Assembly: GCF_003334305.1 (NCBI RefSeq)
Contig: NZ_QOWS01000006.1
Length of the DNA stretch: 64,000 nucleotides
Origin: Escherichia coli
Lineage (GTDB): Bacteria; Pseudomonadota; Gammaproteobacteria; Enterobacterales; Enterobacteriaceae
Direction: 5' to 3' (one strand)
Below the pieces are notes generated by a model. It worked only from the letters and a program-made list of their open reading frames with translations. It had not been told where the DNA came from and made no database searches. Positions 10,005 through 10,490 of the stretch are shown here, one piece after another; position 1 is the first letter of the stretch, and each line of letters begins with the position of its first letter. Made by a program: the position numbers and the translations under genes.

Positions 10005-10394
10005 ATGAAAAAGCTGCAAATTGCGGTAGGTATTATTCGCAACGAGAACAATGAAATCTTTATAACGCGTCGCGCAGCAGATGCGCACATGGCGAATAAA
10101 CTGGAGTTTCCCGGCGGTAAAATTGAAATGGGCGAAACGCCGGAACAGGCGGTGGTGCGTGAACTTCAGGAAGAAGTCGGGATTACCCCACAACATTTTT
10201 CGCTATTTGAAAAACTGGAATATGAATTCCCGGACAGGCATATAACTCTGTGGTTCTGGCTGGTCGAAAGCTGGGAAGGGGAGCCGTGGGGTAAAGAAGG
10301 GCAACCCGGTGAGTGGATGTCGCTAGTCGGTCTTAATGCCGATGATTTTCCGCCAGCCAATGAACCGGTAATTGCGAAGCTTAAGCGTCTGTAG
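10005..10394 (+). CDS. mutT: 8-oxo-dGTP diphosphatase (Nudix hydrolase MutT)
   Basis: 129-aa ORF with Nudix box GGKIEMGETPEQAVVRELQEEVGI. Confidence 0.96.
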   Translation: MKKLQIAVGIIRNENNEIFITRRAADAHMANKLEFPGGKIEMGETPEQAVVRELQEEVGITPQHFSLFEKLEYEFPDRHITLWFWLVESWEGEPWGKEGQPGEWMSLVGLNADDFPPANEPVIAKLKRL

Positions 10395-10490
10395 GTCGGA
10401 TAAGGCGTTCACGCCGCATCCGACATTTGCACAAGATGCCTGATGCGACGCTGTCCGCGTCTTATCAGGCCTACGTGCGGCATCAGACAA
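10394..10490. repeat. REP (repetitive extragenic palindrome) cluster, BIME-like
   Basis: At least two REP units: GTCGGATAAGGCGTTCACGCCGCATCCGAC and GCCTGATGCGACGCTGTCCGCGTCTTATCAGGCCTAC in opposite orientation, between convergent mutT and yacG. Confidence 0.85.

Follow-up and report, generated by a model that had tools for sequence, protein, structure and literature searches.

One BIME-2 unit in the gap between the convergent genes mutT and yacG of Escherichia coli: identity, variation, and possible functions

Introduction

What kind of sequence separates the convergent genes mutT and yacG of Escherichia coli, and what might it do for the two transcripts that meet there? We addressed this question for the 99-bp intergenic gap (10395..10493) between these genes in a stretch of 64,000 nt of the E. 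coli chromosome, here called the window, for which an earlier reading of the letters (the original prediction) had proposed a cluster of repetitive extragenic palindromic (REP) sequences, or bacterial interspersed mosaic elements (BIMEs). The gap consists of exactly two intact REPs and a doubtful remnant, and it lies between the 3′ ends of two transcription units, secA-mutT and coaE-zapD-yacG. Below we describe the two palindromes, the class to which they belong, and their variation within E. coli and in other genera, and we then weigh the functions that may be attributed to them.

Descriptions of REPs and BIMEs go back to the 1980s. In our literature search, no paper was found that treats the mutT-yacG REP locus specifically, and the literature on 3′-end mapping (SEnd-seq) yielded no information at the level of this locus. 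The RefSeq record of K-12 lists no repeat feature there. Neither gene is named in the supplements of the paper on the bridge RNA of the insertion sequence IS621 (PMC11208160), and in those of a 2026 preprint on REPs (bioRxiv 10.64898/2026.03.23.713779) mutT and yacG appear only in differential-expression tables, with non-significant changes.

Results

Two inverted REPs between mutT and yacG

The palindromes were compared with the Y and Z2 REP consensus sequences given in the IS621 paper (PMC11208160). The first unit, REP1, is identical to the Y consensus TGCCGGATGCGGCGTAAACGCCTTATCCGGCCTAC at 32 of 35 positions (blastn-short, E 5e-9), and the second, REP2, to the Z2 consensus at 36 of 37, with one 1-nt gap (E 4e-10). 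Against Z2, the alignment score of REP2 was 33, as compared with 17 against Z1. A degenerate 37-nt REP pattern matched 10438-10474 without a single mismatch, for an expectation of 0.00 in shuffled sequence, and the whole 64 kb contain just two copies of the REP tail CTTATCMGRCCTAC, one on the minus strand (10391-10404) and one on the plus strand (10461-10474), where chance would give 0.03. The two units stand in inverted orientation, head to head. When further REPs were sought across the 64 kb with three consensus sequences and the tail pattern, none was found outside the mutT-yacG gap, and the blastn-short matches of the consensus sequences to the rest of the window all had E > 0.08. The palindromes are E. 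coli REPs, a kind of sequence already described.

Both units fold into stable hairpins on either strand. The stem of REP1 spans 10395-10424, its first base directly following the mutT stop codon, and for the hairpin, which has an internal mismatch, the plus strand gives a calculated -18.8 kcal/mol (z -5.1) and the minus strand -19.2 kcal/mol (z -5.9). For REP2, with an internal loop in its stem, the values were -21.3 and -21.8 kcal/mol on the two strands (z -5.8). Over the whole gap, the plus strand folds at z -4.2 and the minus strand at z -5.2. The feet of the hairpins are GTAG for REP1 and CTAC for REP2, as the definition of REPs requires (PMC3333891). Their position is extragenic, between the convergent stops, with only the GTAG overlapping the mutT stop; since this foot (10391-10394) contains the TAG of mutT, REP1 starts within the gene. 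The coordinates of these and other features are collected in Table 1.

Between REP2 and the yacG stop lie 19 nt that are conserved in all the Escherichia alleles examined. A third REP was sought in this tail and rejected: the best local consensus score was 7, equalled by 7-9% of shuffles, and the stretch has no fold of its own (z -0.4). Part of it, GCATCAGACA, pairs weakly with the 5′ arm of REP2 (10 nt at 90%), and at most a remnant may be present.

The REP portion of the element is dispersed in the species. A megablast search of 5,426 complete E. coli genomes with a query of 391 nt returned 47,242 places, with a median of 9 per genome, and REP1 alone matches other genomic places at 100%.

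These results bear out the original prediction of a REP/BIME cluster in inverted orientation, both by the alignments to the Y and Z2 consensus sequences, the point on which it could have failed, and by the match to the Rfam naRNA4 model described below. Its other details stand in part. Of the units announced as at least two, two are intact, REP1 on the minus strand and REP2 on the plus strand, and any third one is only a doubtful remnant. The element had been said to fill the whole intergenic space from one stop codon to the other; it covers 85 of the 99 bp, the last 19 nt being unproven as REP, and it begins at 10391, in the GTAG that holds the mutT stop, its demonstrable part ending at 10475 and not at 10490.

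Table 1. Coordinates of the mutT-yacG element, of the flanking genes, and of other RNA matches in the 64,000-nt window (ORF, open reading frame)
Feature	Position	Strand	Description
REP1, Y-type palindromic unit	10391-10425	-	Inverted relative to the published consensus; plus strand reads GTAG, then the hairpin
Linker ATTTGCACAAGAT	10425-10437	.	13 nt, head-to-head between the hairpins; unpaired in the folds; aligned with the linker, also of 13 nt, in the Rfam naRNA4 model
REP2, Z2-type palindromic unit	10438-10475	+	Stem 10438-10470, CTAC tail 10471-10474
Y-linker-Z2 unit, match to Rfam RF02564 (naRNA4)	10394-10471	+	78.4 bits (gathering score, 59.5); full model, positions 1-77 of 77
19-nt tail GTGCGGCATCAGACAAATG	10475-10493	.	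From REP2 to the yacG stop; possible degraded REP head, not demonstrable
IS621 natural 11-nt target ATCAGGCCTAC	10464-10474	+	CT core at 10471-10472; identical to the published target (PMC11208160)
mutT stop codon TAG	10392-10394	+	Inside the conserved GTAG (10391-10394) of REP1; from the sequence and the ORF list
yacG stop codon (TGA on the minus strand; tca as read)	10494-10496	-	Followed after 19 nt, on the minus strand, by the GTAG foot of REP2
mutT	10005..10394	+	ORF list; name from the RefSeq annotation under 100%-identical matches
yacG	10494..10697	-	ORF list; name as for mutT
secA	7240..9945	+	ORF list; name as for mutT
zapD	10701..11444	-	ORF list; name as for mutT
coaE	11444..12064	-	ORF list; name as for mutT
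STnc40 (Rfam; Salmonella sRNA)	9921-9990	+	Full model, 81.7 bits; secA 3′ end and secA-mutT spacer
PssrA (Rfam; "plasmid-encoded Shigella sRNA A")	4185-4274	+	Full length, 105.5 bits; chromosomal, upstream of secA
tp2 (Rfam sRNA candidate)	21746-21859	-	Full length, 103.4 bits

Class of the element and closest known systems

In the Gilson/Bachellier nomenclature, as summarized by Ton-Hoang et al. (2012, PMC3333891), a BIME-2 element pairs a Y unit with an inversely oriented Z2 unit across a short linker and occurs in tandem copies, more in some strains than in others. BIME-1 elements combine Y and Z1 with a long L linker, in which a site for the integration host factor (IHF) is often found (PMC3333891). 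The element between mutT and yacG is one BIME-2 unit, because Y and Z2 stand in inverse orientation, the linker is of 13 nt, and the tandem number varies between strains; this last property belongs to the locus as seen across strains and not to the window, which holds a single unit. Its likeness to other E. coli BIME-2 elements extends to the GTAG/CTAC foot, the mismatch in the stem and the 3′-extragenic site. It is unlike them in being a minimal, single-unit allele, and in that the GTAG of REP1 lies on the mutT stop, so that three to four bases are not strictly extragenic.

Assignment to the BIME-1/RIP class was considered and rejected, as the second unit here is by its scores a Z2 and not a Z1. 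The class also fails because the IHF consensus WATCAANNNNTTR has no match on either strand of 10380-10505. The RIP-RIB elements of this class, composed of Y, Z1 and an IHF-binding L linker, share with the gap the two inverted REPs in a 3′ intergenic position, and differ from it in the linker and in the IHF consensus, which the gap lacks. A perfect IHF core consensus, TATCAATGAGTTA, is carried by the spacer that separates repeat units in K-12, and this spacer is missing from the allele of the window; in the whole 64 kb the core consensus has only three matches.

The Y-linker-Z2 unit matches the Rfam family RF02564 (naRNA4) over the full model, with no non-canonical pairs flagged, and the minus strand scores 52.9 bits. 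This family models the 77-nt Y-linker-Z2 unit of REP325, an element located in K-12 between yjdM and yjdN. Both elements have a unit of 77/78 nt made of a Y hairpin, a 13-nt linker and a Z2 hairpin, and the constant spacer between the units of REP325 has its counterpart in the multi-unit alleles of the mutT-yacG locus. REP325 comprises six units and lies between tandem genes, unlike this locus, where the genes converge and the number of units is one in the window and up to four in other strains; the sequences of the linker and of the spacer also differ. Moreover, the terminator and stabilizer roles that were shown experimentally for REP325 are, for the mutT-yacG locus, a proposal.

The locus in other E. 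coli genomes

The mutT-yacG locus is present in all 5,426 genomes of the comparison set. By alignment of representatives, it is a variable-number tandem repeat of a 116-bp unit composed of Y, linker, Z2 and a 34-nt spacer. One unit is found in the window, two in K-12 MG1655 (gap of 215 bp; positions 535-749 of locus L001), and three in strain 2018-02-2CC (positions 346-676 of locus L002). The inter-unit spacer, which is specific to this locus, was found in 1,868 of the 5,426 genomes (34%), in one to three copies, and therefore up to four units occur. In a systematic sample of 40 rows of the ranking, about 55% of the alleles were single-unit, 35% two-unit, and 2.5% three-unit. Because the unit of the window and the K-12 unit nearest to yacG have identical sequences, and because a divergent Escherichia genome (MutT 90% identical) carries three units with homologous spacers, the one-unit allele is probably a deletion, plausibly sited at the shared sequence TGTAGGTC.

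A second kind of variation affects the end of mutT itself. In strain 20, which has another common single-unit allele, the TAG of mutT is replaced by TAT (around positions 340-355 of locus L004), and MutT is annotated with 132 aa, three residues longer, its reading frame closing at a TAA within the Y REP stem. In this strain, the one genome in which the stop shift was checked, the REP thus provides the last mutT codons and the stop. Its gap length is shared by about 30% of the genomes (388-390 bp span, 94-96% identity) in the systematic sample.

The third kind is the insertion of IS621, an IS110-family element with a bridge-RNA recombinase. In strain 2013C-3277 it occupies positions 2646-4023 of locus L003, which corresponds to 10472/10473 of the window, and its junctions read ...ATCAGGCCT/TGTATT... 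and ...ACAGTATCT/ACGTGCGG..., with CT at both. These sequences place the insertion at the CT core of the natural target listed in Table 1. The mutT-REP-IS621 junction was found in 179 of the 5,426 genomes (3.3%), mostly of the O26/O103 type among those listed. As in the natural IS621 targets within REPs, REP2 of the window holds the exact target with its CT core; unlike in the occupied strains, the site is empty.

The distinct Escherichia units are few, and most of their differences in the stems are changes that break pairs; the structure of REPs is already established at the family level.

The mutT-yacG junction in other genera

For a wider comparison, species-representative genomes were scanned with YacG, which gave 80 Enterobacterales loci, and in all 80 mutT and yacG are convergent. 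The two genes overlap tail to tail by 4 bp, leaving no intergenic DNA, in 14 of these loci (L019, L023, L027, L030, L034-L036, L038, L047, L048, L050, L055, L065, and L068), which belong to Pluralibacter, Buttiauxella, Cedecea, Mangrovibacter, and some Enterobacter-labelled genomes. REPs of their own types are found in the gap of other genera: one to four in Citrobacter species, one in the Enterobacter cloacae group and in Lelliottia, two in Pseudocitrobacter, and one in Pseudescherichia. The gap of Atlantibacter contains a classical hairpin-plus-T-run terminator.

The C-terminus of MutT is of equal length with or without REPs in the gap. Taken with the 4-bp overlaps, this indicates that the whole E. 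coli gap is added sequence. REPs have repeatedly colonized this convergent junction. In one of the loci, that of Citrobacter amalonaticus AUH_CA_2023_1 (L006), MutT matches only over residues 1-97 and is followed by an unrelated C-terminus from a downstream frame, which suggests a frameshift or an assembly error.

Other RNA elements in the window

Three other full-length Rfam matches were observed in the window (Table 1). The match to STnc40 takes in a textbook terminator, a hairpin followed by U6 (AAAAGGCGCAGGAUUCUGCGCCUUUUUU), immediately before mutT, which the simple terminator scan had missed; expression of mutT must then rely either on transcription past this terminator or on a promoter of its own. 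The matches to PssrA and tp2 lie farther from the element, the former on the chromosome in spite of the name of the family.

Discussion

The most likely role of the BIME-2 unit, which we put forward with moderate confidence, is that of a hairpin barrier at the 3′ ends of both converging transcripts, combined with a partial terminator that lacks a U tract. Both transcripts would enter the element and each would gain two stable 3′ hairpins, of about -19 to -22 kcal/mol, which would impede 3′-to-5′ exonucleases. The same hairpins would serve as a partial terminator without a U tract, probably dependent on Rho, and in this way either transcript would less often extend into the opposite gene, antisense to it. 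With its stem at the first base after the mutT stop, REP1 may also lower the synthesis of MutT by hindering terminating ribosomes. The element would belong to a family spread by the REP-associated transposase, and its presence at this locus would be an insertion and not an ancestral state.

A classical intrinsic terminator was considered and rejected. The scan for intrinsic terminators found no hairpin-plus-T-run in the gap, and the bases that follow the stems, CCTACGTGCGG on the plus strand and CCTACAGACGC on the minus strand, contain no U or T run on either strand.

The inference of a terminator and stabilizer draws on the results of the 2026 preprint on other REPs (bioRxiv 10.64898/2026.03.23.713779). 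In that work, REP325, whose repeat unit is also Y-linker-Z2, is a partially Rho-dependent terminator and a stabilizer of the upstream mRNA. About 30% of the convergent gaps of E. coli contain REPs, the presence of REPs in such gaps correlates with higher expression of both genes, and 78 REPs fall within mapped bidirectional terminators. The half-lives of mRNAs ending in REPs are not longer in general, and the effects of REPs therefore depend on context.

Some observations weigh against the role as barrier and partial terminator. Other genera have the mutT-yacG pair with no gap at all, and E. coli tolerates one to four units and the insertion of IS621 at the locus; both facts speak for a function that, if any, is dispensable or weak. 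As for translation, a REP that lies no more than 15 nt past a stop codon attenuates it by ribosome stalling, with mRNA cleavage and tmRNA tagging at the stop (Liang et al. 2015, summarized in PMC12306157). The stem of REP1 lies 0 nt after the TAG of mutT, well inside this range, and the distance from the yacG stop to the nearest hairpin is 19-23 nt, which is beyond it and counts against such an effect for that gene. By stalling terminating ribosomes, REP1 could even set the output of the antimutator MutT, and natural alleles, differing in stop position, in unit number, or in the IS621 insertion, would then give heritable differences between lineages in MutT level and in the A:T-to-C:G mutation rate; we regard this extension as quite improbable.

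The original prediction had offered mRNA stabilization or termination and the binding of gyrase or IHF as functions, which may be seen as generic options of the family. Among these, stabilization and termination are the best-supported reading, through the published work on other REPs, although not in the form of a classical intrinsic terminator; gyrase binding fits the Y + Z2 composition of BIME-2; and an IHF site has to be abandoned for this allele, in view of the missing consensus and of a composition that is not Y + Z1 with an L linker. The strain-dependent copy number, which the original prediction had also anticipated, is found across E. coli, from one to four units.

A serious alternative to the role as barrier and partial terminator regards the element as a passenger, either selfish or neutral, that owes its spread to recombination and to the REP-associated tyrosine transposase (RAYT/TnpA-REP) and that occupies a permissive convergent gap, with no selected function at the locus and only incidental effects on RNA. 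We consider it possible, though clearly less probable. It is serious because other genera can do without the element and E. coli strains differ in it: in 14 of the 80 related genomes the 4-bp overlap leaves no spacer, so the locus needs none, and among the remaining genera the number, type and orientation of the REPs differ. Within E. coli, besides the change from one to four units, 179 genomes tolerate the 1.3-kb IS621 inside REP2. The features required by TnpA-REP, namely the GTAG foot and the mismatch in the stem, are kept in both REPs (compared with PMC3333891), and REP2 has the cleavage motifs TGCC/TGAT and GGCC/TAC. On the other hand, the same gap has been occupied independently by REPs in at least five genera, which also fits a benefit at convergent 3′ ends, and both hairpins are intact in the allele of the window, with no decay. 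The published genome-wide association of REPs in convergent gaps with higher expression of both genes likewise speaks against a mere passenger.

A role at the level of DNA, in which the BIME-2 unit would be a site of gyrase binding and cleavage that clears positive supercoils between the converging units, appears unlikely. According to the twin-domain model, positive supercoils build up between converging transcription units, as would be the case here. The usual gyrase substrates are tandem arrays, while the window holds a single unit of 78 bp. The Y + Z2 composition is that of the elements which gyrase binds more tightly than BIME-1 and cleaves in vivo, according to the literature as summarized in PMC1475751 and PMC3333891. 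The gene yacG, which codes for a gyrase inhibitor, directly adjoins the BIME-2 unit, a member of a REP class reported to bind gyrase. This adjacency is no evidence for the gyrase reading and is probably a coincidence, because the mutT-yacG pair occurs without any REP in other genera.

Less probable still, and in our opinion very doubtful, is a discrete nucleoid-associated noncoding RNA (naRNA) of the naRNA4 kind, which would bind HU and bridge REP cruciforms in the condensation of the chromosome. The match to RF02564 is full-length and above the gathering score, and the REP325 unit, for which the model was put forward (PMC4550694), has an identical architecture. That family is in effect a generic Y-linker-Z2 model, and a match to it shows architecture and not function. 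In addition, the 2026 preprint, from groups including the original authors, reported that HU, cruciform DNA and naRNA4 form no stable ternary complex, that nucleoid volume is unaffected when REP325 is deleted or overexpressed, and that REPs make no long-range contacts with one another. For the locus studied here, no promoter-like site was found in or beside the gap.

Finally, that the palindromes are not REPs at all but chance hairpins or a private bidirectional intrinsic terminator, to which the location would be suited, is refuted by the consensus alignments and by the pattern searches with their chance controls, given the near-perfect fit to two different published REP consensus sequences at zero chance expectation, the copies elsewhere in every E. 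coli genome, and the lack of a T run behind either stem on either strand.

Conclusions

As a discovery the element has little weight, being a textbook Y + Z2 unit in the commonest niche of REPs, the convergent gap. In genome annotation, REP element is the appropriate label for the 99 bp, which give no ground for gene or small-RNA searches, and the Rfam match named naRNA4 is best read as a generic Y-linker-Z2 unit. The locus offers, in turn, a natural series for the function of REPs at convergent 3′ ends and at stop codons, which runs from no gap in some genera to one to four units in E. coli, and which also includes the allele with a shifted mutT stop and the allele with IS621 inserted.

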